Shown: in pieces, positions 1-14,872 of the stretch
How the letters are laid out: every line of letters begins with the position of its first letter
Position numbering within the stretch: position 1 is the first letter of the stretch
Origin: a virus
Lineage: Duplodnaviria > Heunggongvirae > Uroviricota > Caudoviricetes
Reading direction: 5' to 3' (one strand)
DNA length: 16,102 nt
Virus record (IMG/VR): IMGVR_UViG_2778261646_000017
Location: 1-16,102 of that record
Made by a program: the position numbers and the translations under genes
Notes under the pieces: generated by a model
The model's database searches: none
Seen by the model: only the letters and a program-made list of their open reading frames with translations
What the model was told of the DNA's origin: nothing

Positions 1-1461
1 ATGAAAAAATTACTGCGTCTTTTTTTCCCGCTCTCGCTGCGGGTACGTTTTCTGTTGGCAACGGCAGCGGTAGTACTGGTGCTTTCGCTTGCCTACGGAA
101 TGGTCGCGCTGATCGGTTATAGCGTCAGTTTCGATAAAACTACGTTTCGGCTGTTACGTGGCGAGAGCAATCTGTTCTATACCCTTGCGAAGTGGGAAAA
201 CAATAAGTTGCATGTCGAGTTACCCGAAAATATCGACAAGCAAAGCCCCACCATGACGCTAATTTATGATGAGAACGGGCAGCTTTTATGGGCGCAACGT
301 GACGTGCCCTGGCTGATGAAGATGATCCAGCCTGACTGGCTGAAATCGAATGGTTTTCATGAAATTGAAGCGGATGTTAACGATACCAGCCTCTTGCTGA
401 GTGGAGATCATTCGATACAGCAACAGTTGCAGGAAGTGCGGGAAGATGATGACGACGCGGAGATGACCCACTCGGTAGCGGTAAACGTCTACCCGGCAAC
501 ATCGCGGATGCCAAAGTTAACCATTGTGGTGGTGGATACCATTCCGGTGGAGCTAAAAAGTTCCTATATGGTCTGGAGCTGGTTTATCTATGTGCTCTCA
601 GCCAATCTGCTGTTAGTGATCCCGCTGCTGTGGGTCGCCGCCTGGTGGAGTTTACGCCCCATCGAAGCCCTGGCAAAAGAAGTCCGCGAACTGGAAGAAC
701 ATAACCGCGAATTGCTCAATCCTGCCACAACGCGAGAACTGACCAGTCTGGTACGAAACCTGAACCGACTGTTAAAAAGTGAACGCGAACGTTACGACAA
801 ATATCGTACGACGCTCACCGACCTGACCCATAGTCTGAAAACGCCACTGGCGGTGCTGCAAAGTACGCTGCGTTCTCTGCGTAGTGAGAAGATGAGCGTC
901 AGTGATGCTGAGCCGGTAATGCTGGAGCAAATCAGCCGCATTTCACAGCAAATTGGCTACTACCTGCATCGTGCCAGTATGCGCGGCGGGACATTGCTTA
1001 GCCGCGAGCTGCATCCGGTCGCCCCACTGTTGGACAATCTCACCTCGGCGCTGAACAAAGTGTATCAACGCAAAGGGGTCAATATCTCTCTCGATATTTC
1101 GCCAGAGATCAGCTTTGTTGGTGAGCAGAACGATTTTGTCGAGGTGATGGGCAATGTGCTGGATAATGCCTGTAAATATTGCCTCGAGTTTGTCGAAATT
1201 TCTGCAAGGCAAACCGACGAGCATCTCTATATTGTGGTCGAGGATGATGGCCCCGGTATTCCATTAAGCAAGCGAGAGGTCATTTTCGACCGTGGTCAAC
1301 GGGTTGATACTTTACGCCCTGGGCAAGGTGTGGGGCTGGCGGTAGCCCGCGAAATCACCGAGCAATATGAGGGTAAAATCGTCGCCGGAGAGAGCATGCT
1401 GGGCGGTGCGCGGATGGAGGTGATTTTTGGTCGCCAGCATTCTGCGCCGAAAGATGAATAA
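1..1461 (+). CDS. phoQ: Two-component sensor histidine kinase PhoQ (complete, 486 aa)
   Basis: 486-aa ORF starting [33 protein letters not shown]; periplasmic acidic patch [12 protein letters not shown] region, H-box [10 protein letters not shown], ATPase G-boxes DDGPGI and GQGVGL; recognised as E. coli PhoQ. Confidence 0.97.
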
Positions 1462-1583
1462 ATATGTCCTTTTATCACCACAGCAAGGCAACCCATTGAT
1501 TTAATTAAACAACCCACACTGCAAAAAGTGCTAAAAACAGCAAATTGACTACACCATTAACTACACCGTTCGGTGCACTGTAT

Positions 1584-1610
1584 GAAACAACGTGGAACAA
1601 ATAGACACAA
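1584..1610. promoter_or_regulatory. Partial third copy of the phased GAACAA element (gaAACAAcgtgGAACAAatagacacaag)
   Basis: 17 nt (gaaacaacgtggaacaa) identical to the start of the reverse complement of 14781-14810; lies 123 bp after the phoQ stop. Confidence 0.4.
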
Positions 1611-1900
1611 GAAATATACAGGCGGGTAATCTTTCCAGGGGGAAGCGCACCAATTCATGAGGGGCGTTAATGTCGATATGGGGATCCCCATAACGGGGCT
1701 ACCGGATTTTTTTTCCGGTTAACTGTTAATCAGGCTGGTGGGTTTTACCTGTTCGGTAGGTGTTATGATTATCGTAATACCTTTCCCCCAGTGGGGTAAA
1801 AGCTCCAACCGTAACGATGTTCGTTGTGGTTGCCTTGATGGTCTGCGTGGTCATTATGACCATTCCCAAAAACAACATATTCGTTGTTTTTCTGTGCCCC

Positions 1901-2330
1901 GACCTCCTCAAATTGAGGAGGTCGAAAGTATCAACCAGTTACCGCGCCGACTTCCTCAAATTGAGGTTCCCGAAAATATCAGCGGGTTAACGATCAAACT
2001 GGCGAGTAATTAAACTGCGAAAATTTCGCATGTGAGGGATGTAGTCGGCGCAATTTTGCGCTTTGCTTTAATCTCAGTAAGTTACCGCGCCAACTTCCAC
2101 AGTCTGTGGAAATTGGGAAGAATCAACGGTTTAGGCCTTAATCATCTGCGTAATCATAAGTAATCATAATGTTCATTCAGCCACGCAATTTTGCGTTATC
2201 GGGAATATCAGCAAGTTACCGCGCCGGATTCCGCCAATGGCTGTTTCCGAAAGAATCAACGGGTTAGGCTGGTTTCCCCGATGTTCGCCGCTGGCGAATT
2301 TCGAAAATATCAACCAGTTACCGCCGCAAC
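1901..2330. repeat. Array of seven copies of a degenerate 12-17 bp motif (ATCARC-NR-GTTA, four extended to AGTTACCGCGCC) interleaved with hairpins
   Basis: Motif copies at 1931-1948, 1976-1992, 2074-2091, 2121-2137, 2205-2225, 2254-2269, 2307-2327; perfect 11-bp-arm palindrome gacctcctcaa-a-ttgaggaggtc at 1901-1923 with a degenerate copy at 1949-1970; palindrome ttccacag-t-ctgtggaa at 2094-2110. Confidence 0.6.
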
Positions 2331-2599
2331 CGCTCCGGCTTCTTCCAGTGGTACGTTATTTTTTCTTTCTCCCGATGCAGTTCAACGCGGCGATTGTAGG
2401 CCAGCATTTCAAGAACGCGGATCCGTATGTTGCGCATATCAACATCATTAAGCTGGATACCATCACGGCGCATCACCTCAGCAACAACACGCGCATAATT
2501 TTCGGCTGTCACGCTGTCCGGCTGCGTGGTCTGTTCGTCAGCCTGCTGGTTGATTCCAGAGACGCGGCGGATTAATCGCAGTATTTCGGCTTCTGTCAT
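2318..2599 (-). CDS. Hypothetical protein, 93 aa (orphan gene after TerL; candidate accessory gene)
   Basis: ORF MTEAEILRLIRRVSGINQQADEQ...; GAGG Shine-Dalgarno 9 nt upstream of ATG at 2599; enteric-like codon usage; starts 14 bp after the TerL stop. No family recognised. Confidence 0.55.
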   Translation of the reverse strand: MTEAEILRLIRRVSGINQQADEQTTQPDSVTAENYARVVAEVMRRDGIQLNDVDMRNIRIRVLEMLAYNRRVELHREKEKITYHWKKPERLRR

Positions 2600-2612
2600 G
2601 CTGCTGACCTCA

Positions 2613-4274
2613 TTACACCCCGCTAAATTCTTCCAGTTTCTGGCGGTGGCTGTCGCTTATATCAAAAGCAAAATCCTCATGCTCTGCCTGAAATGTACCA
2701 AACGCCATCAGTGCCGCTACGCTCGGGTCTATCTTGTTCGGTGATTTTTTCTTGTTCGGCTTGATATTGGCGTTCGCGTCACTCTGCATCACGACGTTAC
2801 TCATCGACCAGGACAACACCGGATCGCCACGATGCACAATCACCCTGCGGTTAACAAAAACTTCGAACGATTTCGCCGCCGGACTGAATCTGAGGTAGGT
2901 TTGCGGGAACGGCTCCACCTCAAAGCCTGCCCCCTGTAATTGCGTTCTCAGGTGCGTGGCGTTCCACGTATCGAAGCCCACCCGCCTGATATTAAATTTC
3001 TCGGCGTCCTGCATGATGTCATCTCTGATCCGGTCGTAATCAATGCAGTCGCCAGGCGTTGTGCGTATCCAGCCCGCTTTAGCCCACTGGCGATAGACAG
3101 CGCGATTTTTATTGGCTGGGTTCTGTAGCTGGAACTCCGGCAGATAATGACGGGAAACCAGCATGATATTTTTACCGACCGGAAAGGCATAGCATACGCT
3201 GGAAATATCGCTGGTTGATGATAAGTCCAGCCCCGCGTAACACTCCTGACCGTGTAAATCTTCCTCCGTGAACGTTCCGGTACACTCAGCCCATGCACCA
3301 TTACCCATCCACGGGGTAGTCCCCTGACACCAGATATTAAATCGCTTTGTCATCATCTCCACCCACTGCGACGGAATACCCCGCGCTTTCTGGATGGTTG
3401 AGGCCAGTTTTTCACGATCCACGGAAACATCGATGTTAGGGTTAGCCTTTATCCACATCGCCGGATCATCAACCTCGTTTTCGTCGTCCAGTTCGTAAAT
3501 CAGTACAAAAATTGAATCGTTGACCTCTTCGCCGTCCAGGATCTGGCAGCAATAATCATAGTGCTGCTTACAGGCTGAAACGACGTTACTGCCCGATGTG
3601 GTAATGGCAAATAACAGCCCTTCGGGACGTGCGCCCATCCCCATATCAAGTGCGGAATAAACCCCGTTGTCTGGGTGCAGGTGATATTCATCCACAATGG
3701 CAAGACTCGGGTTTGTCCCCTCAATGGTTGCCGCTTTTGCTGCCAGTGGCTTTAACAGGCTGTTGGTTTTCGGGTGTATCACCTTATGCGCCTGAATATT
3801 CACCCGCCTGCGTAACGGTCGGGATAAAAGGCACATCTGACGCGCATCATCAAAGACGATCCGCGCCTGGTCACGGCTCACCGCTGCGGTGTAGATATCC
3901 TGCTGACCGTTCTCCATAATCAGAAACCAGTTAGCCAGAATCGCGGCGGTCGTGGATTTCGCATTTTTGCGCGGCACTTCGATAAAGGCGCTCGTGTATT
4001 TGCGCCGTCCGGTGGCCTTAACCTTAAAGCCGAGGATGCACGCAAAGGCGAACTGCTGCCACGGCTCCAGCTCAATGGGTCTGCCACGCATCGGTCCTTT
4101 TACGTGCGGGCACACCCTGGAAAAGGCAATAAACCGCTCCACAACCTCACGATCGAACGTGTAAAGGGGGCTTTTAAGGTCCGAAAAGTACCGTTTAACA
4201 GCCTGTTTTAACCGTTTACAGGCCGGAATTTTGCCCGTTTTTACGTCTTCTGCGTACTTATTCCAGGCGGTCAA
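2613..4274 (-). CDS. terL: Terminase large subunit (Terminase_1-type ATPase/nuclease), 553 aa
   Basis: N-terminus YAEDVKTGKIPACKRLKQAVKRYFSDL typical of TerL; Walker A VPRKNAKST; Walker B-like LAIVDEYH; apparent TTG start inside the TerS 3' end with AGAGGA SD (17-nt overlap with TerS). Confidence 0.93.
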   Translation of the reverse strand: MTAWNKYAEDVKTGKIPACKRLKQAVKRYFSDLKSPLYTFDREVVERFIAFSRVCPHVKGPMRGRPIELEPWQQFAFACILGFKVKATGRRKYTSAFIEVPRKNAKSTTAAILANWFLIMENGQQDIYTAAVSRDQARIVFDDARQMCLLSRPLRRRVNIQAHKVIHPKTNSLLKPLAAKAATIEGTNPSLAIVDEYHLHPDNGVYSALDMGMGARPEGLLFAITTSGSNVVSACKQHYDYCCQILDGEEVNDSIFVLIYELDDENEVDDPAMWIKANPNIDVSVDREKLASTIQKARGIPSQWVEMMTKRFNIWCQGTTPWMGNGAWAECTGTFTEEDLHGQECYAGLDLSSTSDISSVCYAFPVGKNIMLVSRHYLPEFQLQNPANKNRAVYRQWAKAGWIRTTPGDCIDYDRIRDDIMQDAEKFNIRRVGFDTWNATHLRTQLQGAGFEVEPFPQTYLRFSPAAKSFEVFVNRRVIVHRGDPVLSWSMSNVVMQSDANANIKPNKKKSPNKIDPSVAALMAFGTFQAEHEDFAFDISDSHRQKLEEFSGV

Positions 4275-4614
4275 GCTCGTCCTCTTCTTCTGTTTCCGGT
4301 GGATTTTTACGGCGGCTTATCGGGTCAAAACCGAGCAAGGAGGCCATTTTTATCATCACTCTTTCAGCGTCGGATTTTGCGCTTAATGCGGGGTTTCTGC
4401 TCTCGCCGCCCTGACTGTTAACAATGCTGAACCCGCGCGCCGCAAGGTCTGCAACGGCTTTCCGGTAAATGGAGTAGTTGACGCAATACAGTTCCAGATT
4501 GCTCCAGTCGGCGGGGGTCAGGTCTCCCCGTTCCGCAAGCTGCCGCGATTTTTCCCGCCACTGCTTCACGGCGATATCATCCAGGTAGGCGGGGGCTTTC
4601 GGTGGTCTTGCCAT
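4258..4614 (-). CDS. terS: Terminase small subunit, P27-family-like, 118 aa
   Basis: MARPPKAPAYLDDIAVKQWREKSRQLAERGDLTPADWSNLELYCVNYSIY...NPALSAKSDAERVMIKMASLLGFDP with acidic C-terminus; directly upstream of and overlapping TerL. Confidence 0.8.
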   Translation of the reverse strand: MARPPKAPAYLDDIAVKQWREKSRQLAERGDLTPADWSNLELYCVNYSIYRKAVADLAARGFSIVNSQGGESRNPALSAKSDAERVMIKMASLLGFDPISRRKNPPETEEEDELDRLE

Positions 4615-4665
4615 GCTTATTTTTCGTCAGATTATTTTTCAAAAAATTCCCGTGCATAAAAATTT

Positions 4666-4724
4666 GGGGAGGCGTTCGGTGCCCGGCGGGGTCGGGTTTG
4701 TCCTGAAAACGCCCCCCACCCCGT
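4666..4724. other. Putative cos (cohesive-end) site: GC-rich segment with partial dyad symmetry in the 288-bp HNH-TerS intergenic gap
   Basis: ggggaggcgttcggtgcccggcggggtcgggtttgtcctgaaaacgccccccacccc; it is the only long non-coding gap in an otherwise overlap-coupled operon; HK97-like cos phages place cos between the HNH gene and terS. Confidence 0.4.
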
Positions 4725-4902
4725 CATACAGCCTCATCAGCGATTGCGGAAACATTCCATAACCTCGCGGTCACGGTCGGTTAATCGCTTCGCTGTGATG
4801 CGTTCTGCGCGTCCTGACGCTTTATCTTTATGCCCTGTTTCCTGTGTCTTCCATGCGTCACGCTGCCTTATAAGTCCACGGATAAGGCGGTTTTGTTCCC
4901 GC

Positions 4903-5343
4903 TCATTCATCAGCGTCATACATCCAGTTATTGCGGTTAGCGGCCCGTTCTTCCTCTTCATGAAATCCACCTGCGGCACGCTTGCTTTTTGTTGCCGGAT
5001 CAAGCCATTTCGTTTTCTGGTTATGACACGCCTGGCACAATGGTTGATGGTTCCATTCGGGCCAGAAGAGAACATCATCACCGCCATTAATCGGGATAAT
5101 GTGATCCACCACCACGGCGGGCGTATATATCCCCTTCTCAAGGCATCGCACGCATAACGGGTTTTTACTCAGATACATGGCGCGGTATTTGTCCCACTGT
5201 CTGGAGTACCCACGCGCGCGGCGGTGTCCTCGTCTGGCATCCTCTGCACGCCATGCCGCCCGCCTGTGCTCCTCACACTTGCCGGACTTCACGCGCCTGT
5301 TACAGCCTGGTTCTGTGCATCGTCTTAATGGTTGCCACGGCAT
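4903..5343 (-). CDS. HNH endonuclease (packaging-associated), 146 aa
   Basis: Cys pairs CTEPGC...C and CVRC...C, HNH core VVDHIIPINGGDD...NHQPLCQACHNQKT; GGGGGTG SD; sits immediately upstream of the cos-like gap and terS. Confidence 0.88.
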   Translation of the reverse strand: MPWQPLRRCTEPGCNRRVKSGKCEEHRRAAWRAEDARRGHRRARGYSRQWDKYRAMYLSKNPLCVRCLEKGIYTPAVVVDHIIPINGGDDVLFWPEWNHQPLCQACHNQKTKWLDPATKSKRAAGGFHEEEERAANRNNWMYDADE

Positions 5344-5639
5344 CAGTACACCCCCACATCACGGTAAGCCGTCCAGAGCGCGCCAATCGTCATGGGTACG
5401 CGCGTTTTTGCGTTATCCGCTACCAGCTGGCGATTCTCGTACAGGTGAGCGATAAACATCATGCAGCCAATCTTTATGGCTGGCGTGAACTCCAGCCCGT
5501 CATCAAAGCGCCTGCCTATATGTATCTGGCACGCCTCAAGCGATGCGGCAATGTATCCGCTGATTAACTGGTCTTCCTCGTCGCCATCGATGCGGCAATG
5601 GAGTTTCACTTCTTCCAGGGTGATAAGTTCTTCTGTCAT
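5343..5639 (-). CDS. gp6-like head-tail connector protein, 98 aa
   Basis: N-terminal LITLEEVKLHCRIDGDEEDQLISGYIAASLEACQ matches the gp6-like connector signature; GAGGG SD; ATGA start-stop overlap with the upstream adaptor gene. Confidence 0.75.
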   Translation of the reverse strand: MTEELITLEEVKLHCRIDGDEEDQLISGYIAASLEACQIHIGRRFDDGLEFTPAIKIGCMMFIAHLYENRQLVADNAKTRVPMTIGALWTAYRDVGVY

Positions 5640-5974
5640 TTTTCCGCGCCCTCACGACAAAGAATTTCAAGGCGTGTCCTGGCGGCATCCGGCAGCGGCT
5701 GCCCGATGATATTCAGTACACGCCCCGCCAGCGGCCCCGTATTGACCTTTATCCGGCTGGTGGCGTTGATGTCCTTCCTGTAGCGTATCCATATCCTTAC
5801 CGTTCCAGTCGCCAGTTCTGCACCCGATGAAATGGCCTCCTTGCTGCTGATCATGTTCACGCTTGCCCAGAGTGTGTGACCGTCCACCCACGTTTCGAGT
5901 ATTTCGCCGGTTATATCCCTGGTCTGTTTCAGGGTCTGAATCGTTACCCTGTCACGCAGTCGCCCTATGTTCAT
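5636..5974 (-). CDS. Head-tail adaptor / head-closure (joining) protein, about 112 aa
   Basis: GRLRDRVTIQ...TGEILETW...LWASV...RIWIRYR pattern of the phage head-tail joining family; start chosen at ATG 5974, which forms an ATGA overlap with the portal stop (the ORF track's longer start at 6016 has no SD). Confidence 0.75.
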   Translation of the reverse strand: MNIGRLRDRVTIQTLKQTRDITGEILETWVDGHTLWASVNMISSKEAISSGAELATGTVRIWIRYRKDINATSRIKVNTGPLAGRVLNIIGQPLPDAARTRLEILCREGAEK

Positions 5975-7182
5975 TCCGGTTTTTCTCCCTCGCTGATTTT
6001 TACTTCCTGTTTCCATGCCTGGCTGAACTCATCACCACCATCACGCGGGGACAGCCCTTCACGTTCGCGGGCTTCGTTCGGGCACATAACGCCGGATTTG
6101 ATGCCGCGTTCATAGGTGGCAAAGCGTTCGCCAGGTGTGGCCCGTAACAGGTCCGCGCTGTCAAACTCCACCTGATACCGGATACCAGGTACAGGTGAGG
6201 CCACCAGCAGGGCGTTTTTTATCTGCTGCTCAAAGTTCGCCAGCCACGGGCGCATCGTCATGGTGAGAAATGCGCGGCTTGCCTCGCTGAAATTGCTGTA
6301 GGTGCTGTTGCTGTATTCCTGCAAAAAAATCGGCGAGACGTTGAACATTCGGGCGATGTCTTCAATGGTGAAGCGACGGGAGGCCAGCCATTCAGCATCC
6401 TGATTACTCATGCCCAGCTGCTGATAGCTCATACCCCCTTCAAGGATGGGCGTTTTTCCGGCGTTTCTGGCCCCTTTGTAGCGTTCCAGTGCGGCTAATG
6501 CCTGTTTGCCCTTCACGCCGTCCAGCCATTCGCCTGACGTGATAACCCCTGCCGCCATCATGCCATCACGCATCACGCTCGCGCCGTGGCGTTGTTGGGC
6601 CAGCCCAAGCCCCAGCGATTCGCGGCAGATGGTTACAGGTGAGCGCCCCATAAAACCGTCATCCGTGGAGTAACGAAGGTGGAGAACCTCCCACGGTAAA
6701 TAGTTGCGGGTGTTTCCGGTGTAGGCGTCAGTGATGCAGTAGCGCCAGTTATGCTCACCTGTCTGCTCCACGTTCACCGACTGCGGCGGGTAAGGATGTA
6801 AAGCCACCGGAAAACCATCACGCCCCCACCGAATCACCGCATAAGCATTACCGTTTAACAGGCAGTGGCGGATCATCATTCGCTTAAACTGGTAGGGGGT
6901 TTGCCACGCGTTCGGGCGCTCGTTGAGGATGTGATCGACCGGATGAGAATCAAGCCACTCGCGGGCCTCCTTCCCCTTCTCATTGCGTACCAGGTACAGG
7001 TAACACGGCATGGTAGCCACCGCCTCAGAGATGACCGTCACGGCGTTCATGACGGCGGGCAGTGATTCCGCTGTCCCCGATGATACGTACTCACCCGCCC
7101 CCGTGTTCGATGTGCCGGCCAGCGCCATAAACTCATCAAGCGTCATGCTGCGCTGCTCTTTTTTTCTTCTGAAAGGCCACAT
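5971..7182 (-). CDS. Portal protein (HK97-family-like), 403 aa
   Basis: 403-aa ORF between protease and adaptor with portal-like features (…FNVSPIFLQEYSNSTYSNFSEASRAFLTMTMRPW…); GGGGGTG SD; start 1 nt after the protease stop. Confidence 0.9.
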   Translation of the reverse strand: MWPFRRKKEQRSMTLDEFMALAGTSNTGAGEYVSSGTAESLPAVMNAVTVISEAVATMPCYLYLVRNEKGKEAREWLDSHPVDHILNERPNAWQTPYQFKRMMIRHCLLNGNAYAVIRWGRDGFPVALHPYPPQSVNVEQTGEHNWRYCITDAYTGNTRNYLPWEVLHLRYSTDDGFMGRSPVTICRESLGLGLAQQRHGASVMRDGMMAAGVITSGEWLDGVKGKQALAALERYKGARNAGKTPILEGGMSYQQLGMSNQDAEWLASRRFTIEDIARMFNVSPIFLQEYSNSTYSNFSEASRAFLTMTMRPWLANFEQQIKNALLVASPVPGIRYQVEFDSADLLRATPGERFATYERGIKSGVMCPNEAREREGLSPRDGGDEFSQAWKQEVKISEGEKPE

Positions 7183-7183
7183 A

Positions 7184-7741
7184 TCACACCCCCGCTAAAT
7201 CCGCCCACCAGCGGCGATTATCCGCACGCGGCATTTTTTCGGGGTGCTGCTCGTACAGGGAGCGGCGGGCCAGCTCCACGCCAGAATCAGGGTAAGCCGG
7301 TACGGATGTAACGGTAATTTCGTACAGTTCCGCCACCAGCACGGTGCGCACGCATGGATCTGTTGTGGTATCCCATACATCCTTACGGGAGCGAAAGCCA
7401 AAGCTCATGCCGGATATATCACCTCGTTTAACCAGTTCGATAACGTCCCGCCCTGTACTGGTATCCGGTGGGGTCAGTTCAAAGCGTAACCCTGTGTCGT
7501 CCTCTTCCAGTTTCAGCGTGCCGGAACGGGTGCGCCCCAGTAACATGCTGTGGTCATGCTCATACAGGCCGCGAACGTCATTACCCGCTGCAAGCCATTC
7601 AGTAAACGCTCCCCGCTGGAATTTTTCGTAAAACTCCCCCCATAGCAGCTCTGAAAGGTTATCCCAGCGAACAACGTAGCCTGTAAGCGTGTTGCTGGCG
7701 CTGGTGGTGATTTCCGATGACCGGATTTCCATACTCTTCAT
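7184..7741 (-). CDS. Prohead maturation protease (HK97-family-like), about 185 aa
   Basis: MKSMEIRSSEITT...GYVVRWDNLSE...DHS..LLGRTRSGTL...GDISGMSFGF motifs; start placed at ATG 7741 (GGTGA SD) because the longer start at 7756 lies directly on the tail of the upstream terminator. Confidence 0.85.
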   Translation of the reverse strand: MKSMEIRSSEITTSASNTLTGYVVRWDNLSELLWGEFYEKFQRGAFTEWLAAGNDVRGLYEHDHSMLLGRTRSGTLKLEEDDTGLRFELTPPDTSTGRDVIELVKRGDISGMSFGFRSRKDVWDTTTDPCVRTVLVAELYEITVTSVPAYPDSGVELARRSLYEQHPEKMPRADNRRWWADLAGV

Positions 7742-7756
7742 AATTTTTTCACCCAT

Positions 7757-7786
7757 AAAACACTAAAGGGGCTTTTAAGCCCCTTC
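7757..7786 (-). terminator. Rho-independent terminator between the capsid and protease genes
   Basis: On the - strand: AAGGGGCT-TAAA-AGCCCCTT stem-loop followed by TTAGTGTTTT, 10 nt after the capsid stop. Confidence 0.6.
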
Positions 7787-7795
7787 TGTATGCTG

Positions 7796-8953
7796 TTAAT
7801 CGTCGTCCTGTGGCAGTTCCAGAATCTTGATCGCGTTCGAATCCACCACGCCACCGCCTAAATATTTCTGCGTGAAAATTTTGATGAAGCCCGGCTCTGT
7901 GAGGTTGTCCGGTCTGGTGCGAACACCTGTTTCGTGATCAACAATGTAGTAACCGCGTTTGAAGTCACCCAGGGCAATAACGTTATCAGGCATAAACTCC
8001 AGATATTCGACCGGAAGGCCCAGCAACGTATCAGGATCACCCGCCTGTAAACGGTCGCGCCAGATGTAATCACCGTTCGCGTTCTTCACCTTCTGAAGTT
8101 TTGCGGCCGTCGTGGAGTTAACCACCCAGACCGCGTTTTTGCGATATTTTTTATGTAATGCAAATTTCAGGTCGATCAGCGGGTCCGCAGATGTCCACGC
8201 CAGAGATTCGGAAGGTTTAATTACCTGTAACGTACCAAAATCACGCTCTTTGTCGTTCTTCTCTGCACGGGGTACGGATAAAAAGCCTTTTGCTTTTTTG
8301 TCACCGTCGCCCACAACCAGATCGCTTTCTTCGGTTTCCGTGAAGGTGTCGCCAATCTCACCCGTCAGCCATGAAAGGATGTCCACATCGGAAAAATCCA
8401 CGATTTCCTGTGTGGTGCGCGGGTACGCATAGACCGGATACAGCTTAATGCTCACCTCGTTAATCTGCGGGGTGCTGGTCTGTTCGCGTGCCTTACCCTC
8501 TTCACCGTGGTTAACGGTCGCACCGCCAGCGGAAACAAGCTGCTTAAACTCGTTGCTGCTGATTTTCTTCACGGTACAGATGCGGCGCATGGTGGATTCA
8601 TCCGCCAGCATTCGCATGATTTCGGTGTTCAGCTCGGGGATAACGGTATAACCACCATCAGCGGGAACGCCTGTACTTAATGCGCGGGTTTCACCTGTCA
8701 GGATGTAGTTTCGTAGTTCTGCGGGGTCAGTGGTCTGACTGCTTTTACCTGGCTTGCTGCGCTCTTCGTCTGCAATGGCTTCAAGGCGGGAAATGTCTTT
8801 ATCGAGGGATTCAGCTTTAGCGCGTAATTCGTCAAATTTTGCGCCCTCAGCATCGTTAAGACTGCGGTTTTCTTTTTCCGCGTTCTCCAGCATGTCGCGC
8901 ATCTGATTTTTAATGGCGGTTTTCTGCTGGCGTAATTCGATTATTCTCGGCAT
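7796..8953 (-). CDS. Major capsid protein, HK97-fold with N-terminal coiled-coil scaffold (delta) domain, 385 aa
   Basis: N-terminal 60 aa heptad-rich (LRQQKTAIKNQMRDMLENAEKENRSLNDAEGAKFDELRAKAESLDKDISRLEA); C-terminal body with capsid-like features (…GYYIVDHETGV…); followed by a terminator. Confidence 0.93.
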   Translation of the reverse strand: MPRIIELRQQKTAIKNQMRDMLENAEKENRSLNDAEGAKFDELRAKAESLDKDISRLEAIADEERSKPGKSSQTTDPAELRNYILTGETRALSTGVPADGGYTVIPELNTEIMRMLADESTMRRICTVKKISSNEFKQLVSAGGATVNHGEEGKAREQTSTPQINEVSIKLYPVYAYPRTTQEIVDFSDVDILSWLTGEIGDTFTETEESDLVVGDGDKKAKGFLSVPRAEKNDKERDFGTLQVIKPSESLAWTSADPLIDLKFALHKKYRKNAVWVVNSTTAAKLQKVKNANGDYIWRDRLQAGDPDTLLGLPVEYLEFMPDNVIALGDFKRGYYIVDHETGVRTRPDNLTEPGFIKIFTQKYLGGGVVDSNAIKILELPQDDD

Positions 8954-8960
8954 AAAAAAA

Positions 8961-8990
8961 GTCCTGGGGTTAAGTAAGGAACTCCAGGAC
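8961..8990 (-). promoter_or_regulatory. Stem-loop plus U7 tract immediately 5' of the capsid ATG; the stem contains the AGGA Shine-Dalgarno
   Basis: - strand reads GTCCTGG-(16-nt loop)-CCAGGAC-TTTTTTT-ATG; the only SD-like sequence (AGGA, 8 nt before ATG) is in the 3' arm of the 7-bp stem. Confidence 0.5.
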
Positions 8991-9167
8991 GCGGCAAAAA
9001 CTCAACCGTTTTTCATAAGGAAATCAGCAATCGCACCGATCGTTTTCCCGCCTGGTAATGAATATTGGCGAGAACATTAACAGGCGGAAAAGTGGCCCCA
9101 GCGTCCTGGCACCACGGGCGAGAATAATCATGATTCAGTTCGGGTAAAATATGCCGATCCGGTCAGC

Positions 9168-9193
9168 GAACAACGTGGAACAACCACGAACAA
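9168..9193. promoter_or_regulatory. Phased hexamer element GAACAA-cgtg-GAACAA-ccac-GAACAA, about 215 bp upstream of the capsid gene
   Basis: Three perfect GAACAA hexamers at 10-bp spacing; 9169-9193 is identical to the reverse complement of 14781-14805. Confidence 0.5.
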
Positions 9194-9210
9194 ATAATTT
9201 ACAAAACATG

Positions 9211-9235
9211 ACAAAAAGCCGGATTGCTCCGGCTG
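9211..9235 (-). terminator. Rho-independent terminator after the PerC-like gene (end of the early operon)
   Basis: - strand: AGCCGGA-GCAA-TCCGGCT followed by TTTTTGT, 6 nt after the stop. Confidence 0.6.
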
Positions 9236-9240
9236 TGTGA

Positions 9241-9513
9241 TTATCTGTCCTGGTAATTTCGCCATATTTCATCACCAGCACCATCCATACCCATTTCGGC
9301 ATAAGTGCGATCGACCGCCTTTTTCAGGTCTCCGTAATTATCCGGCGGCTCCGGTGGCCTCTGTGCCTTCCTGGAACATTCCAGCCGTCGCATCGTGATG
9401 TGATGCCGTTCCTTGTCTGTCTCCACCAGTTGCATGACTTCACCCCATCGCGCCGACGCTCTCCGGTAAAAGCCTTTCGCCTCCAGTTCTTCCGCTATGC
9501 GGTCATGTACCAT
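9241..9513 (-). CDS. PerC-like small transcriptional activator (putative), 90 aa
   Basis: MVHDRIAEELEAKGFYRRASARWGEVM... resembles my recollection of the PerC-family N-terminal signature (LE..G.WRRAA.RW); strong GAGGGGGG SD; family assignment not verified. Confidence 0.55.
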   Translation of the reverse strand: MVHDRIAEELEAKGFYRRASARWGEVMQLVETDKERHHITMRRLECSRKAQRPPEPPDNYGDLKKAVDRTYAEMGMDGAGDEIWRNYQDR

Positions 9514-9522
9514 CGCCCCCCC

Positions 9523-9933
9523 TCAGAACGGAATATCATCACCGTAAGGGTCATCGCCTCCCGCTGGTGGCTGATTACCCTGTGTGCCTGTGGTCTTGCG
9601 CCGGCTCCCACCAGGTCGCGCCGTTCTGGCACTGATTACGCTGTCTGCAATAACCTGCCAGCCCTGCCGCGTTTCGCCGTTCTGGCCTGTCCACTGGCTT
9701 ACCTGCATGTTACCCGCCACGCTCACCAGCTCGCCTTTGTGGTGTTTTGCCAGTGCGTCGGCCTGTCTGCCAAACGCCAGGACGGATAACCACATCGTCG
9801 CCTGTCCGTCATCTGCCTGATTGCACGGCAGGGGGACCGCCATGCTTGCCATAGCCATTTGTGTGCCCTTGCTGGTGGTCTTTAACTGCGGGTCAGCCAC
9901 CAGCCGCCCGTAAGCGGCTATCTGTGCTGTCAT
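9523..9933 (-). CDS. ssb: Single-stranded DNA-binding protein, divergent, with canonical acidic DDIPF C-terminal tail, 136 aa
   Basis: OB-fold-like core (YGRLVADPQLK...WLSVLAFGRQAD...KGELVSVAGNMQVSQW), Gly/Pro-rich linker and C-terminal DDPYGDDIPF; ATGA overlap with the upstream gene. Confidence 0.8.
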   Translation of the reverse strand: MTAQIAAYGRLVADPQLKTTSKGTQMAMASMAVPLPCNQADDGQATMWLSVLAFGRQADALAKHHKGELVSVAGNMQVSQWTGQNGETRQGWQVIADSVISARTARPGGSRRKTTGTQGNQPPAGGDDPYGDDIPF

Positions 9934-10187
9934 GATTCCACCTCTCCGGTTTTAACGTTGATGGTTGTTACCTGTTCCGCTTCGGCAATCTCCCGTTCCG
10001 TCAGCGTGGCAAAGTTTGCCGCCGCCGTGGTCATGAATGCGCTTATCAGGTCGGGATGTGCTTTCGCGTATCCTTCCCCCGTGTTGCGGTCGATGATTTT
10101 TATCGCCACTCTCAGCCAGTGCTCTGTAAGGTCAATGGCGCGGTTATGCTGCTTCTTCTGATTATTAAGTTTTCCTGATGTGCGCAT
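9930..10187 (-). CDS. Hypothetical protein, 85 aa
   Basis: ORF MRTSGKLNNQKKQHNRAIDLTEHW...; GAGGGGG SD; translationally coupled to ssb. No family recognised. Confidence 0.55.
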   Translation of the reverse strand: MRTSGKLNNQKKQHNRAIDLTEHWLRVAIKIIDRNTGEGYAKAHPDLISAFMTTAAANFATLTEREIAEAEQVTTINVKTGEVES

Positions 10188-10229
10188 TTTTATTTTTACC
10201 CCCTCGTTTAAAAAGTTTTGAGTTGTGCC

Positions 10230-10465
10230 TCCCCTTGTCTACCTTATCTACCTTACTGGCTCTCATGCCAGTAATGGCGCGGCTTTCAGCGGGGTAGAGT
10301 GCTTTTATCCACTATCTACCCCGTATCTACCTCCCTGTCTGATTCAGGTAAAATCAGGTAGAGAGGGTAGATAGTAGGTAGACAGTGAAAAAAGGCTGTC
10401 TACCTAAGTTAATATACTGAATTAAATGTATTTTTCTTTACTCAGGTAGACAGGGTAGACAGCCA
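10230..10465. repeat. Iteron-type replication origin: at least 11 copies of GGTAGA / TCTACC in both orientations flanking an AT-rich core
   Basis: tgtctacc, tatctacc (x3), ggtagag, aggtagagagggtagatagtaggtagacag, gtctacct, then AT-rich taagttaatatactgaattaaatgtatttttctttac, then aggtagacagggtagacag; immediately 3' of the primase gene. Confidence 0.7.
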
Positions 10466-10475
10466 TTGCAAAAAA

Positions 10476-12224
10476 TTATAAAAACGCGTCGCAATCGTCT
10501 GTTGTTATTGCGTTAGTCTGCGTTACTCCCTTAACTTTCCGCGTAATATATTCATGTCCGTAAACTTTCGCGGCTGGCTTCATAGCCTTGCCAAAGTCAT
10601 TTACGTTTAGCGGTTTGCTCCTGCCTGCGTATGCCATAAACGCCAGATAGACGCGGTAAAGGCTGTTTCTGGTCGTGTACTTCACTGAATCGCCACCGCC
10701 ACCCATCATCAGGCCGCGCGCTTCCTCCAGAAAATTCAGGAACTGGCAAAACTCAATAACCGGATCCGTCTGTTGCTTTATTGCCAGTGCTTCATCACCG
10801 TCACGCTGTTCCAGTAGTAAAGCCCGTGCCTTCTCAGGGTCGGTAAAGTTCGCCAGCAAGCGGCGGATAATGACAGGGATTTCAGCCGCGATCTTTTCCG
10901 GTAGCTCCCTGTCTTTTTCTGCCTCGCTTACGATATTGTCGAAGCGGAAAATAACCCGACGACGTGACACGCCTCCGGCCCGTTCGGTGAATATCATCGG
11001 GTTGTTATTGGTCGCCAGCACCACCGCCCTGATTACCGTAGTGAAACGCTTTTCATATTTCGGGTTGATTTCCACGGGGTCGCCGCCCGTGATTTTCTTG
11101 ATGCCCGTGCCTTCGCCTGTATATTTCGGCTGGTCTGCCAGGACGATAAGACGACTCCCGACAACCTGCGCACGCCCACCAGCATCATCAAGCGATGTCA
11201 TTTCCGCGCTTACCGTGTTTTGTTTCCCCGCTAAAAGGCTGGCGATGTGGGTGAATGTACTTTTGCCGCTCCCGCCGTCTCCGGTGGCCTCAATAAACAT
11301 CTGCCAGTCGTACCGGTTCGCCATAATCATGTACAGCGCGGCACATATACGCATCATCTTGCGCTGGTCTTTTCCGGCTGCGTGATCAAGCCATTTATGA
11401 AAGTTTGGCGCGTTATCGCGGATGTTCTCCCCAGGTGCTGGTGGCGTGTACTCAATGCCGTTGTGCGTGGTGATCCAGTTCTCCGGCGTGTGCGGGGAAA
11501 ATTCCCCCGTTTTCAGGTCAAGCGCACCATTGGCGAACGGCAACAAATCGCCGGACGGCTCGCCCATTGGTTCGGCAATAACTTTTAACGCTTCCACGGC
11601 GTTATTGATTACGCGCTTGCTGAAAGTGGCCCTGTGCTCTGAATAGATCGCCACCATTTCGCGGCTAAGTTCCATTGTGCTGACCGGACACCATACCCCG
11701 CCGCGCCATACGTGAACGATTTCACTTTCCGGATGCACACAAACGCCATCAAATCGACCAGCAAGCATCTGTGCGCGCTCACTGTCTGCCATTTGTGCCA
11801 GTTGCGTATTTTTCTGCTCCGGCATGGTAAGCCCTGCGGCAATATTTTCACGCTCAGCATTCAGATAGCGCCGCCAGTTTTCACACTTCTGGACGTGCAT
11901 TCCTTCGGGGTAAAAATTTGCGTCCTGAATATCTGCCGCCGCCAGCTTCTGACCAATCTTTTTGGTCTCCACCAAATCCAGTTCTCCGGCCTGGTACAGC
12001 CTTACGCGCTTTTTCCCATCCGGAACAATTTTCAGCGCATCAAGTTCGGCAAGCTGATTTGGCCCAAGCCACACAGGCGGCACATTATCGCCGGATGCGG
12101 GGCCGTCCTGCTCCTGCCACTGTTTTGCATGTGACCACGCATCACTACCCGCGAAAATAATTACCTCTGTGTCTTTGTGTTTTATTCCGCGTGGCTGTTT
12201 TTTTACGTTCGGTGCCAGTTTCAT
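10476..12224 (-). CDS. Replication protein: primase / SF3-type helicase (P4 alpha-like, PICI Pri-Rep-like), 582 aa
   Basis: Walker A GDGGSGKST, Walker B-like RLIVLAD, N-terminal primase-like region; ATGA-coupled to the upstream small gene; iterons directly downstream. Confidence 0.88.
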   Translation of the reverse strand: MKLAPNVKKQPRGIKHKDTEVIIFAGSDAWSHAKQWQEQDGPASGDNVPPVWLGPNQLAELDALKIVPDGKKRVRLYQAGELDLVETKKIGQKLAAADIQDANFYPEGMHVQKCENWRRYLNAERENIAAGLTMPEQKNTQLAQMADSERAQMLAGRFDGVCVHPESEIVHVWRGGVWCPVSTMELSREMVAIYSEHRATFSKRVINNAVEALKVIAEPMGEPSGDLLPFANGALDLKTGEFSPHTPENWITTHNGIEYTPPAPGENIRDNAPNFHKWLDHAAGKDQRKMMRICAALYMIMANRYDWQMFIEATGDGGSGKSTFTHIASLLAGKQNTVSAEMTSLDDAGGRAQVVGSRLIVLADQPKYTGEGTGIKKITGGDPVEINPKYEKRFTTVIRAVVLATNNNPMIFTERAGGVSRRRVIFRFDNIVSEAEKDRELPEKIAAEIPVIIRRLLANFTDPEKARALLLEQRDGDEALAIKQQTDPVIEFCQFLNFLEEARGLMMGGGGDSVKYTTRNSLYRVYLAFMAYAGRSKPLNVNDFGKAMKPAAKVYGHEYITRKVKGVTQTNAITTDDCDAFL

Positions 12225-12520
12225 TTTTTACCCCTGAATACGTTAAGCATCTTTTTTATTTCCTGAATATTGGCGCGTGCTTTCTCCCTGCTGGTTGGTT
12301 TACTGCGGGGCGCTGCCTGTACCAGAGAAAAATCACGCCGAAACTGATAAACAGGCATCACGCAATCATATTCGTAGCCTTCACGACGGTAGGTGATGCG
12401 CCGTTCTGCCACGCCTTTAATCGTTACCATGCCGCCATATTTATCGCGGTAAATATCGCCGTTCATAAATTCAGGACGAGCGGGGCCGCTGGCAGTAACG
12501 CCAGAATTTTTATTTTTCAT
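12221..12520 (-). CDS. Hypothetical protein, 99 aa
   Basis: ORF MKNKNSGVTASGPARPEFMNGDIYRDKYGGMVTIKGVAERRITYRREGYEYDCVMPVYQF...; basic C-terminus; no family assigned with confidence. Confidence 0.55.
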   Translation of the reverse strand: MKNKNSGVTASGPARPEFMNGDIYRDKYGGMVTIKGVAERRITYRREGYEYDCVMPVYQFRRDFSLVQAAPRSKPTSREKARANIQEIKKMLNVFRGKK

Positions 12521-12525
12521 GTTTT

Positions 12526-12753
12526 TTATTCTCCGGTGTGCTGCGCTTTATTATTCTCGTGAATTGCCATCACTGTATTTAATTCATTAATAACAGGCGT
12601 TAATAGCGTACGCACGGCAGAAAACATCATTGAATCAGATTCATCGCCACTTTCCGGCACATCAATTAACTTAAGTAGTAATGCGTCCATTTCCTTTGCG
12701 CGGATTAATGCGTTTTCAGAATGAACAAGAACATCAAAGGGTATTTTATGCAT
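12526..12753 (-). CDS. Hypothetical protein, 75 aa (start at the internal ATG with AGGGGGGAG SD)
   Basis: MHKIPFDVLVHSENALIRAKEMDALLLKLIDVPESGDESD...; the longer start offered by the ORF track (12855) has no SD and overlaps the upstream gene. Confidence 0.5.
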   Translation of the reverse strand: MHKIPFDVLVHSENALIRAKEMDALLLKLIDVPESGDESDSMMFSAVRTLLTPVINELNTVMAIHENNKAQHTGE

Positions 12754-12916
12754 GACTCCCCCCCTGGCGAATACGGGCGACAAAAATAAGATGTGCGTGC
12801 GGCAGCTGTGCACGTGCTTCGCGCTCAGTGGCAGCGGTAACGGTGAATATTGCAATACTGTCTGTCAGGCACTGCATAAAGCGCCAGACAAAATAAGGGC
12901 GTGCGAATACAGCCAT
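12746..12916 (-). CDS. Small protein, 56 aa, paralog of the gene at 13203-13406 (possibly the Icd-like cell-division-inhibitor family; unverified)
   Basis: MAVFARPYFVWRFMQCLTDSIAIFTVTAATEREARAQLPHAHLIFVARIRQGGSHA aligns with the C-terminal 50 aa of the upstream paralog (WRF...EARxQ.P......F.ARIRQG.SHA). The reading frame stays open upstream to 13210, so the N-terminus is uncertain. Confidence 0.5.
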   Translation of the reverse strand: MAVFARPYFVWRFMQCLTDSIAIFTVTAATEREARAQLPHAHLIFVARIRQGGSHA

Positions 12917-13202
12917 GTGAAAGGCTCCCAGATGAATTTTAAGGAGTCTCGCTACTACGCTGCTAAACATGGTGGCGAGACGTAACAGGGTTAGCAGACT
13001 GGTCATCTGGAAACCAGCGAGCACAAAGGCTCCCCCGTTACGCCCCGCCATAATGCGGGTATGGGTAGGTTTACGGACACAAAAAAACCGCTTATCGGAT
13101 GTGGGCGGCTGTCCGCCAGATGTATTCAGGCTGCTAAACCCGGTCGCCATGTGGGCGACGGGGGAAGCATACAGCCCCGTGATAATTTTTTGCAAGCGGT
13201 TT

Positions 13203-13406
13203 TTACGCATGATGTGACCCCTGACGAATACGGGCGGCGAATACCATCACGCAGCCAGCCGGGGATTGCTGGCGTGCCTCCTGTTCGCTGGTGGCCTCAA
13301 TGGTAATCACGCGCGGTTGTGCCGTGCTCAGGGCGATAAAACGCCAGATGTATTTATTCAGGTTGTGCGAGTCCCGCCCTTGCGGGTGTGTGGTATGATT
13401 TCTCAT
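13203..13406 (-). CDS. Small protein, 67 aa, paralog of the gene at 12746-12916 (possibly Icd-like; unverified)
   Basis: MRNHTTHPQGRDSHNLNKYIWRFIALSTAQPRVITIEATSEQEARQQSPAGCVMVFAARIRQGSHHA; GAGG SD 6 nt upstream of ATG at 13406; it is the C-terminal part of a 352-aa track ORF whose remainder I reject. Confidence 0.55.
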   Translation of the reverse strand: MRNHTTHPQGRDSHNLNKYIWRFIALSTAQPRVITIEATSEQEARQQSPAGCVMVFAARIRQGSHHA

Positions 13407-13501
13407 AGCTACCTCGATACTTTCGCTATCGTTGGTGGTTAGAGGCTGCGAAAGGACGGCAATCCTTTTCAGCCTCGTTTGCATTGAGTGATAGTTACTC
13501 A

Positions 13502-13582
13502 ACTGGATTCCAGTATAATCATCAAGTGGAATCCACTTCAAGCATTTTGTTTTGGTCTTTTTCGTGTATACTGGATTCCAGT
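13502..13582. promoter_or_regulatory. Three palindromic operators with core TGGAWTCCA, plus -10-like hexamers, in the divergent control region
   Basis: ACTGGA-T-TCCAGT at 13502-13514, AAGTGGA-A-TCCACTT at 13524-13538, ACTGGA-T-TCCAGT at 13570-13582; TATAAT at 13514-13519. Confidence 0.6.
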
Positions 13583-13602
13583 AATCACAAAGGAAACCGG
13601 AA

Positions 13603-13782
13603 ATGGAAAGAGACCATATCAATAACAAATCACAAAAATTACAGGCTCGCGCCCCGCATGAAGTTGTTGAGGCAATGGAGCAAGTCAAAGAAACAGGCGA
13701 GAGCACTGCGCAATTTATCGTTACAGCCATGCGCGGCGAGATCAAACGCCGCCAGCGTCGCAAAGCCAAAGAATCAGAATAA
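13603..13782 (+). CDS. Small ribbon-helix-helix-like DNA-binding protein (putative regulator), 59 aa; not in the ORF track because it is under 60 aa
   Basis: MERDHINNKSQKLQARAPHEVVEAMEQVKETGESTAQFIVTAMRGEIKRRQRRKAKESE; AGGAAA SD 8 nt upstream; predicted strand-helix-helix pattern; operators directly upstream. Confidence 0.5.
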   Translation: MERDHINNKSQKLQARAPHEVVEAMEQVKETGESTAQFIVTAMRGEIKRRQRRKAKESE

Positions 13783-13839
13783 TCACTATCAGCGCCGTGG
13801 CGTGAGGTACTCCGGCGCATTGCTTTACAGGTCAGTACT

Positions 13840-14049
13840 ATGAGCAAAAAACACCGATCAGCAGATGAGATTTTTGCAGAACAACGAAGATTGCTTTTGC
13901 AAAGTATCATTTCACGCCAGCAAGAGAAGGCGCGAGCTAAACAAATGCCACCAAATACAGAACCAGCGCCTACAAGATTTGCGCTTGATGACTTTCTCGA
14001 TAAACACCCCAGGGTAATGAAAGCAAACAAAAACCGCCCACCAGGCTGA
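13840..14049 (+). CDS. Hypothetical protein, 69 aa
   Basis: MSKKHRSADEIFAEQRRLLLQSIISRQQEKARAKQ...; weak AGGT SD; followed by a + strand terminator. No family recognised. Confidence 0.4.
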   Translation: MSKKHRSADEIFAEQRRLLLQSIISRQQEKARAKQMPPNTEPAPTRFALDDFLDKHPRVMKANKNRPPG

Positions 14050-14140
14050 TCACATTGCCCACCAGCCTGATAGCGGCTATCATCCCCGTGCTTATGTTTG
14101 AGATCACACACACAAACGGCGCAGCGGGTTATCTGTTCAG

Positions 14141-14173
14141 AAAGGCGGCTCCATTTCAGGGCCGCTTTTTTTA
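14141..14173 (+). terminator. Rho-independent terminator for the two small + strand genes
   Basis: AAAGGCGGC-(11-nt loop)-GCCGC followed by TTTTTTT on the + strand. Confidence 0.55.
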
Positions 14174-14318
14174 TTCCTGAAAAACCCCAATTTTGTTGTT
14201 TTTCAGTTTCACCAGGGCGAACGAATCCCCGCCCACGTTCTGGCGTATATTCAATCTTCATGGTTATAGCTCTGTGTTCAGATGATTGATGTGTGGCGGC
14301 TGCGTGCCGCCAGCGTGA

Positions 14319-14507: not shown

Positions 14508-14780
14508 TATTGCCCCCCTTTCGTTTCTTAAAGAGTCATCAGGTGTCTTATTGTGTCGTATTGTTCCCGCTAGAGTGATGAATGGCAAATATTGAGGATG
14601 TATGATTTACAGAAAATGAAACAGTAAGAATAAAATCTTTTAAATTCATGTTAATACAAAGGCATAAAATATTGTTTCATGCCTTTTTTCTCACGCGTTA
14701 AAGCGTTATTCGCTAATGTATAAAAAAACAGTCACACAAATAAAATCAGTCACTTATAAACCTGTGTGCTTTTTCGCCTC

Positions 14781-14826: not shown

Positions 14827-14872
14827 CTGTGTGCTTATCCAGTATGCGCATACTGAAAAAACACGAAAAAAA

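Follow-up and report, generated by a model that had tools for sequence, protein, structure and literature searches.

What divides the phoQ gene from the mobile DNA that follows it, and do the short repeats, palindrome and hairpin crowded into the first 260 bp behind its stop codon belong to one device or to several? The question is raised by a 16,102-nucleotide stretch (positions 1 to 16,102) of the viral record IMGVR_UViG_2778261646_000017 (Caudoviricetes), which as a whole is called the window below. An original prediction, made from the letters alone, had placed four features between 1462 and 1720, namely a direct octamer repeat, a 17-nt match to a phased-hexamer element, a perfect 16-bp palindrome and a hairpin, and all four are present at the positions it gave. 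We conclude with considerable confidence that this segment is attL, the left junction of an integrated capsid-forming phage-inducible chromosomal island (PICI) of the EcCIEDL933 family, that 1470-1610 forms the attachment-site arm far from the integrase gene int, that a doubled 12-mer and a series of phased heptamers in this arm read as sites for the integrase (Int) and for the regulator AlpA, respectively, and that the palindrome block is a separate module.

The boundary between host and island

The junction was set by aligning two empty sites, those of Escherichia coli K-12 and strain AH20K059, with both island junctions. A 10-bp identity block, AAATATGTCC (1460-1469), within which the crossover falls and whose first two bases are also the last two of TAA, the phoQ stop codon (1459-1461), is identical at attL, at attR (34975-34984 of L001, a locus carrying the identical island) and at the empty site of AH20K059; the version of this core at the K-12 empty site is AAATATGCCC. 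The phoQ part of the window is matched by all 5,426 of 5,426 complete E. coli genomes, and in the island-free ones, K-12 included, the match ends at 1463-1469. Because it ends there and the AAATATGTCC block is shared, the island starts at 1470, and the island/host boundary is 1469/1470, 8 bp past the phoQ stop codon. The original prediction had island-derived DNA reaching at least to 1584 and the junction within about 120 bp of the phoQ stop, which is borne out and can be sharpened to the stop codon itself. The direct repeat that it proposed to look for beyond int is the second AAATATGTCC copy, and the host origin that it allowed for can be set aside, as no island-free genome carries 1462-1720.

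The insertion point lies between the chromosomal genes phoQ and roxA. The phoQ gene (1-1461, plus strand) is complete and unaltered by the insertion, as annotated both in strain N32, whose island is 100% identical, and in K-12, and the PhoQ protein bears the same accession, WP_000735412.1, in K-12 and in the island-bearing N32. While phoQ and its stop codon stay intact, roxA is cut off from the phoPQ transcription unit.

Identity of the island

The island measures about 14.8 kb between the two AAATATGTCC copies (20161-34984 of L001). Its body occupies 1470-16102 of the window, with all main genes on the minus strand according to the L001 annotation and Pfam, and runs about 180 bp past the window to attR. 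In the order of transcription it encodes the integrase, an AlpA-like regulator, Icd-like proteins, a primase, SSB, PerC, the major capsid protein, a prohead protease, a portal protein, head closure and connector proteins, HNH, TerS, TerL and a 93-aa protein; roxA lies beyond the window. The tyrosine integrase (409 aa; 14873-16102, minus strand) has an N-terminal arm-binding domain (Pfam Arm-DNA-bind_3, PF13356, 6.3e-18, residues 8-95) and a catalytic domain (Phage_integrase, PF00589, 1.9e-16), and the AlpA-like protein (62 aa; 14319-14507, minus strand) matches Pfam Phage_AlpA at 5.4e-17 and PHROG 2790, 'excisionase and transcriptional regulator'.

In every respect that could be tested this is a capsid-forming PICI. 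The PICI core genes, for Int, Phage_AlpA and the D5_N/DUF5906 primase, all lie on the minus strand and so run in one direction; the island has a complete capsid and packaging set of its own, with zero tail or lysis genes in the annotation of the identical L001 island; Pfam confirms Terminase_4 and HNH; and both the size and the specific attachment site with its direct repeat agree, the empty site being present in K-12 and AH20K059. At the same phoQ site, E. coli O157:H7 carries a related island, one example of which matches over 78% coverage at 96% identity, and some genomes are 100% identical over 1470-1900. The same segment, 1470-1900, had zero matches among 50,697 phage records. A contig search for relatives of the integrase returned a single true relative, from Shigella (99% identical), and one spurious match.

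A doubled octamer in both attachment-site arms

Within the 16.1-kb window the octamer ACTACACC occurs only twice, at 1548-1555 and 1560-1567; two or more occurrences anywhere were found in 3 of 200 shuffled sequences, of which the 12-bp spacing was not required. The true repeat unit is a 12-mer with a 12-bp period, ATTGACTACACC followed by ATTAACTACACC (ATTrACTACACC; 1544-1567, plus strand), and these are candidate integrase arm-type sites in the arm far from int. A conserved linker, GTTCGGTGCACTGTAT (1568-1583, plus strand), joins them to the heptamers described below, and its first 11 bases recur in the int-side arm as GATCGTTGCAC. That second arm, upstream of the int start codon and beyond the window, reads ACTACACCattaACTACACC in the same orientation, then GATCGTTGCAC, then GAAACAAgctGGAACAA; each arm of the attachment site thus carries a module of about 55 bp, consisting of doubled 12-mer, linker and heptamers. 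Rather than being incidental markers, the ACTACACC repeat and the hexamer copy are organised elements of this site, a point the original prediction missed.

Nine related islands at six insertion sites were compared: phoQ/roxA (L001, L020 and L021), tqsA (L009), an IS110-family insertion sequence (IS) element (L007), yifB (L008), smrA/abgR (L022) and clpS/cspD (L010 and L023). All nine carry ACTACACC-N4-ACTACACC, co-oriented, in both arms, and the octamers are invariant, whereas the arm DNA nearer the core is about 75% conserved. In eight of the nine islands the motif lies 80.5-83.5 bp from the core centre in the arm away from int and 130.5-133.5 bp from it in the int arm, the two distances adding up to 213-214 bp. 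The ninth is L007, the core of which is ambiguous, located as it is in a look-alike of the smrA/abgR target within an IS element; a core of ATTTATAA, chosen as the longest common substring, gave odd distances of 74.5 and 122.5 bp and was rejected, comparison with L022 pointing to TCACGATATT.

L007 (19940-30830, strain SCU-112) is in itself of interest as a classical PICI lying inside the transposase gene of an IS110-family element (ISEc45). Its integrase is 100% identical to that of L022 over residues 1-95 and 98% identical over the remainder; the L022 target, TCACGATATT, lies between smrA and abgR, and the IS element carries the look-alike target CTCACGATATT. L007 appears to represent a secondary-site integration into another mobile element.

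The bases flanking and spacing the octamers vary among islands, and they do so with the integrase. The flank/spacer is ATTr in both arms where Int residues 1-95 are of type A or C, and AGTr in both arms where they are of type B (L009 and L008), type B also differing in the predicted DNA-contacting stretch of Int (SVKYLTSGK against SVRHSTSGL). This grouping is different from the groupings given by the C-terminal part of Int, by AlpA and by the DNA between the two motifs. Because the flank bases vary with the arm-binding domain, the repeats are read as integrase arm sites. Int has both the arm-binding and the catalytic domain of a heterobivalent, lambda-type integrase, and the attachment site has the matching layout, with an identity block in attL, attR and attB and, in both arms at conserved distances, a motif unlike the core. 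Together, co-variation, position and domain content suggest that an integrase tetramer would use the four 12-mers as its arm-type sites.

Between the core and these sites lies a candidate H' bend. The sequence AATCAATGGGTTG (1489-1501, minus strand) is an exact match to the integration host factor (IHF) consensus WATCAANNNNTTR, of which the window holds six exact matches against 0.63 expected. By consensus matching, the site is exact in the three phoQ-site islands and the tqsA island and has one mismatch in two others (six of nine islands), and the int-side arm has a conserved match with one mismatch. These candidate IHF sites are consistent with a folded recombination complex.

Exact IHF-consensus matches were also seen in a different setting. 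Downstream of the last gene of the island, at 1896-2334, about 440 bp without coding sequence consists of degenerate units of 48 nt, in each of which a conserved stretch, GAAAATATCAACCAGTTACCGCGCC, precedes a variable inverted repeat such as CGACCTCCTCAA/TTGAGGAGGTCG. Four of these units hold exact matches, at 1929, 2121, 2254 and 2308 on the plus strand.

Phased heptamers as probable AlpA sites

The 17-nt element at 1584-1600, GAAACAACGTGGAACAA, is repeated without mismatch at 14791-14807 on the minus strand, and copies with two to three mismatches lie at 9167-9183 and 14811-14827; these four matches compare with 0.07 expected and were reached in 0 of 200 shuffled sequences. It consists of the first two of three heptamers, GAAACAA, GGAACAA and GACACAA, in the arm away from int (1584-1610, plus strand). 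The general form is (G/C/A)(G/A)A(A/C)CAA with a 10-bp repeat spacing, the 'phased-hexamer element' of the original prediction, and the phased pattern GRAACAA-N3-GGAACAA has nine matches in the window against 0.33 expected, likewise with 0 of 200 shuffles reaching that count. Two to three further heptamers lie on the plus strand in the arm next to int, beyond the window. Five lie at 14778-14827 on the minus strand, about 45 bp after the int stop codon and upstream of alpA; three (GGAACAA, GACACAA and GACACCT; 14541-14567, minus strand) are found 34-60 bp before the alpA start codon; and three (CGAACAA, GGAACAA and CGAACAA; 9167-9193, plus strand) lie between perC and the capsid gene.

This distribution recurs in the relatives. 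Heptamer arrays are present in both attachment-site arms of all nine islands. Five islands were scanned in full; four of them have arrays in both arms and after int, and the same four have phased runs before alpA. An array before the capsid gene, in the same place, was found in all three capsid-forming islands among the five (L001, L009 and L008).

Small excision factors such as lambda Xis and P2 Cox bind arrays of direct repeats one helical turn apart. The heptamer arrays are not confined to this arm: the int-side arm has them too, and others follow int and precede alpA and the capsid operon, so that a single protein could direct excision as well as activate genes. In related PICIs, AlpA switches on its own promoter, and its overexpression leads to int-dependent excision and to replication (PMC6092414), and alpA is needed for excision and circularisation (PMC11773190). 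We suggest that the heptamers are probably AlpA sites serving both excision and activation.

The conserved end block

The perfect 16-bp palindrome TATGGGGATCCCCATA (1677-1692) is part of a conserved end block at about 1655-1760. With it goes a short hairpin with a T8 tract, which can be drawn as CCGGA-T8-CCGG (1702-1718) or, with a 6-bp stem ACCGGA/TCCGGT, as ACCGGA-T7-TCCGGT (1701-1719), a stem that is trivial by chance. The window contains two perfect 16-bp palindromes, and at least one arose in 69 of 300 mononucleotide shuffles (23%). Since the palindrome is statistically weak, its reality rests on its conservation in related islands.

Those islands show that the end block and the arm motifs travel separately. 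The block is 84% identical in the helper-embedded PICI L006, which has another arm motif and no adjoining heptamers, and it is absent or diverged in L007 and L010, both of which keep the arm motifs. As the two occur independently, palindrome and hairpin do not belong to the attachment site.

The pattern of variation within the block is uneven. The palindrome extends to a perfect 22 bp in L015 and has one-sided changes in L013, L006 and L008, its core GGGGATCCCCA being conserved; three different continuations begin at its right edge, which marks a mosaic breakpoint. The 5' half of the hairpin is variable (CCGGA, CCTG or CCTGGC) and the 3' half, TTCCGGTTAA, is near-fixed (GCCAGGTTAA in L003 and L014), so that the consensus stem shrinks to three pairs, and a 7-nt deletion takes part of the right flank in many islands. 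The most conserved stretch, AATCAGGCTGGTGGG, includes a Chi site, GCTGGTGG, at 1734-1741 on the plus strand.

With low confidence, we suggest that the end block protects the long minus-strand late-operon transcript at its 3' end or marks that end, or that it acts at the DNA level. The first of these possibilities can be put in a stronger form, in which palindrome and hairpin would be an RNA-level stop or stabiliser that ends the minus-strand operon of the island and/or the incoming phoQ transcript before the attachment site, and in this form we regard it as rather doubtful. The location suits such a function, downstream of the last island gene and between two convergent transcription units, as does the conservation of the block in PICIs with unrelated integrases; the sole positive sign from RNA folding is that a 66-nt minus-strand RNA folds better than 200 of 200 shuffles (z = -2.95). 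Several results weigh against it. No U-tract follows either stem on either strand, the T8 run being the loop of the hairpin, and a terminator and promoter scan of 1462-1720 gave no canonical call. Under a consensus fold of eight variants, compensatory changes were found at zero of nine predicted pairs, with a covariation term of +0.08, and the changes present are one-sided and weaken the stem. The loss of all but three conserved pairs from the hairpin and the 7-nt deletion in the right flank argue in the same direction, and a search of 1300-2700 against Rfam at E<=1 gave no match. A terminator-like role in the canonical sense, as the original prediction offered for palindrome and hairpin, is thus not supported; the protein binding that it also suggested may still apply.

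Action at the DNA level is similarly tentative. Here the palindrome would be a site for a dimeric protein or, with the adjacent Chi, a hotspot for the exchange of ends between island lineages. What is conserved is the sequence rather than the pairing, GGGGATCCCCA and CAGGCTGGTGGG being near-invariant, and in L015 the palindrome is perfect over 22 bp; the three continuations start exactly at the right edge of the palindrome, about 40 bp from a Chi oriented to act on that side. Set against this, one-sided changes are tolerated, the palindrome alone is statistically unremarkable, and no candidate binding protein was found, the neighbouring 93-aa protein having no known family.

That 93-aa protein, encoded by the last island gene (2318-2599, minus strand), matches PHROG 1561, to which no function is assigned, and no Pfam family. 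Its gene adjoins the same island end in capsid-forming, classical and helper-embedded PICIs, and always stands beside the repeat region and the palindrome block.

Two short open reading frames in the segment were considered and rejected. One of 44 aa on the minus strand (1557-1691), which starts within the palindrome, is interrupted by premature stops in L005 and L013, varies at its end and lacks a ribosome-binding site; the other, of 21 aa on the plus strand (1657-1722), is broken by the 7-nt deletion common in relatives.

Partial copies of the block were seen elsewhere. At the clpS site of strain AR24.2b (L016, about 1300-1560) there are two, one comprising the palindrome with CCGGAATTTTTGCCAGGTTAA and the other GCCGGATTTTTTTTCCGGTTAAACGTTAATCAGGCTGGTGGG, which suggests that the palindrome/hairpin block can be duplicated or exchanged between islands.

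The second perfect 16-bp palindrome of the window, CAGTATGCGCATACTG (14840-14855), follows the int stop codon at a distance of 18 bp and is separated by 13 bp from the array of five heptamers. L009 retains it, whereas L007 and L008 do not. Both such palindromes in the window thus have a heptamer array beside them.

Chi sites and a candidate cos site

Chi GCTGGTGG is found 14 times in the window (1734-15218), in each case inside the island and seven times per strand, against 0.59 expected; none of 200 shuffles reached 14. In five islands (L001, L007, L008, L009 and L010) the density is 0.87-1.20 per kb, compared with 0.03-0.36 per kb in the chromosomal flanks, and in the island under study it is four to five times that of the flanks. 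The ends of other PICIs have one to three Chi sites near the attachment-site arm. A high Chi density may protect satellite concatemers or linear DNA from RecBCD; a literature search for a link between Chi and PICIs returned nothing beyond a review.

On the minus strand, between the genes on the HNH side and terS, there is a 122-bp gap (4615-4736) that is very G+C-rich (GGGGTGGGGGGCG...CCCGACCCCGCCGGGC). In HK97-type phages, cos occupies the position between the HNH side and terS. The gap is, by its position, a candidate cos site and a likelier one than the palindrome block, which for this reason is probably not cos. In classical PICIs, cos is located just upstream of rpp (PMC9026076).

Proposed assignment of proteins to the repeats

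Taken together, the elements of the arm suggest how the site would work. The island recombined with the chromosome inside AAATATGTCC (1460-1469), sparing phoQ and its stop codon and parting phoQ from roxA. Read inward from the crossover, the arm presents the IHF-consensus candidate bend site (1489-1501), the two 12-mers (1544-1567) and the three heptamers (1584-1610). The two tandem 12-mers would bind the N-terminal arm domains of two integrase subunits, and the identical doubled 12-mer upstream of int those of the other two, while IHF-type bending would fold both arms onto the core to form the recombination complex. On the heptamers, AlpA would bind side by side on one face of the helix, and the same protein would then both direct excision and switch on the island genes.

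Some observations do not sit easily with these assignments. The co-variation that ties the octamers to Int is seen in only two independent type-B islands. The heptamer sequence hardly follows the AlpA allele: the 53%-identical AlpA of L010 and L023 pairs with CGAACAA units, yet CGAACAA is also present in other islands. No obvious heptamer array was seen between int and alpA in L010, and in EcCICFT073 AlpA is reported to exert no control over int expression (PMC6092414).

The assignment might be the reverse, or be shared, with AlpA or another island protein on the doubled ACTACACC 12-mers and the arm domain of the integrase on the GAACAA heptamers. The heptamers, like the 12-mers, are in both arms. 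P4-type integrases are reported to autoregulate via sites near int, which could account for the array beside int. For the analogous doubled motif of helper-embedded PICIs, binding by AlpA or another protein has been left open (PMC10111431). We nevertheless consider the reversal unlikely. The flank/spacer of the 12-mers goes with the type of Int residues 1-95, whereas the AlpA grouping does not match it; the octamer is confined to the attachment-site arms, and the heptamers also stand before alpA and before the capsid operon, as expected of a transcription activator and not of an integrase; and four half-sites equal the four arm domains of an integrase tetramer. The assignment of Int to the 12-mers and AlpA to the heptamers is the one we retain.

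That the features are host intergenic DNA or functionless chance repeats, as their shortness and the compatibility of hairpin and palindrome each with chance might suggest, is highly improbable, and for the junction, octamers and heptamers it is refuted: island-free genomes carry nothing past 1469, the octamer pair and heptamers are conserved, recur in the second arm and keep fixed distances across nine islands at six sites, and none of 200 shuffles matched the counts of the 17-mer and the phased pattern.

Significance

The finding is genuine and explained, and it is for the most part ordinary. The island boundary is fixed to the base, and the prototype capsid-forming PICI family now has a testable map of its attachment site with a core, a candidate bend site, four candidate integrase half-sites at fixed distances and candidate AlpA sites. 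The general picture of how such islands work is unchanged. As PICIs are under development as DNA-delivery vehicles, a minimal attP and AlpA-responsive sites would be of practical use.

Two modest leads emerge, candidate AlpA operators and a possibly general 81/132-bp attP design, and we give about even chances to the following proposal, which joins them. The heptamer arrays would serve AlpA, the master regulator of PICIs, as its operator, a site left undefined in the PICI studies cited here, and would couple excision, self-activation and late-gene expression through one small protein polymerising on phased repeats. The doubled-octamer attP, with its two plus two sites at 81 and 132 bp, would be a general design of gram-negative PICI integrases, the octamer flank co-evolving with the arm domain, and would not be peculiar to helper-embedded PICIs.

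Comparison with known systems

EcCIEDL933 is the prototype capsid-forming PICI of E. coli O157:H7; a helper phage induces it, and it is transferred in small capsids of its own that receive helper tails (bioRxiv 10.1101/2022.09.08.507074). The island described here shares with it the order int, alpA, replication genes, capsid-protease-portal-connectors and HNH-TerS-TerL, the absence of tail genes and a size of about 15 kb. Unlike the O157:H7 island of this family, the present copy is a mosaic variant with a replication gene of another type. An account of the arm repeats is absent from the papers cited here.

The satellite P4 is similar in having a P4-like integrase and a small AlpA/Vis protein for excision and transcription regulation (Int and Vis, the latter an AlpA homologue; PMC6092414). 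It differs in gene content and attachment sites, and the AlpA of PICIs is described as the island cycle's master activator and not chiefly as an excisionase.

The attP of phage lambda has arm-type Int sites (P1, P2 and P'1-3), Xis sites (X1-X2) and IHF sites (H1, H2 and H'). Compared with this textbook case, the present site likewise goes with a heterobivalent tyrosine integrase with an N-terminal arm-binding domain and has a short core unlike the arm repeats, candidate sites for bending that separate the core from the arm repeats, and, in the arm next to int, direct repeats that would be excision-factor sites between the arm sites and the core. In contrast to lambda, with its two plus three arm sites, the candidate arm sites here are strict tandem pairs, two plus two; candidate sites for the excision factor occupy both arms as well as promoters; the core falls on a protein gene's 3' end; and the system is known from its sequence.

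The closest parallel is the attP of helper-embedded PICIs, where a doubled octamer TGTATTGC (tgTGTATTGCantgTGTATTGCa) with a 12-bp period is found 81+/-2 bp from the attP centre on one side and again, co-oriented, 132+/-2 bp from it on the other; the motif was said not to be found in other PICIs, and whether AlpA or another protein binds it was left open (PMC10111431). We observed it in L006 as GCAATACAcactGCAATACA. Like that site, the one described here repeats an octamer in tandem with a 12-bp period and has two co-oriented copies of this pair at corresponding distances (80.5-83.5 and 130.5-133.5 bp), and GTGTAkT is common to the two octamers in the int orientation, GGTGTAGT here and TGTATTGC there. 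Unlike it, the octamer here is ACTACACC (GGTGTAGT in the int orientation) and not TGTATTGC; the targets are chromosomal (phoQ/roxA, tqsA, yifB, smrA/abgR and clpS/cspD) and not prophage late genes; and phased GAACAA heptamers follow each copy, whereas L006, the single example of that class examined, is without them. Given the different octamer and targets, the site is not a member of the helper-embedded class; it is the analogue in a sister integrase group. The equal geometry despite the different octamer suggests that the architecture of the recombination complex is common across the integrase family, with a small number of bases and of arm-domain residues setting its specificity.

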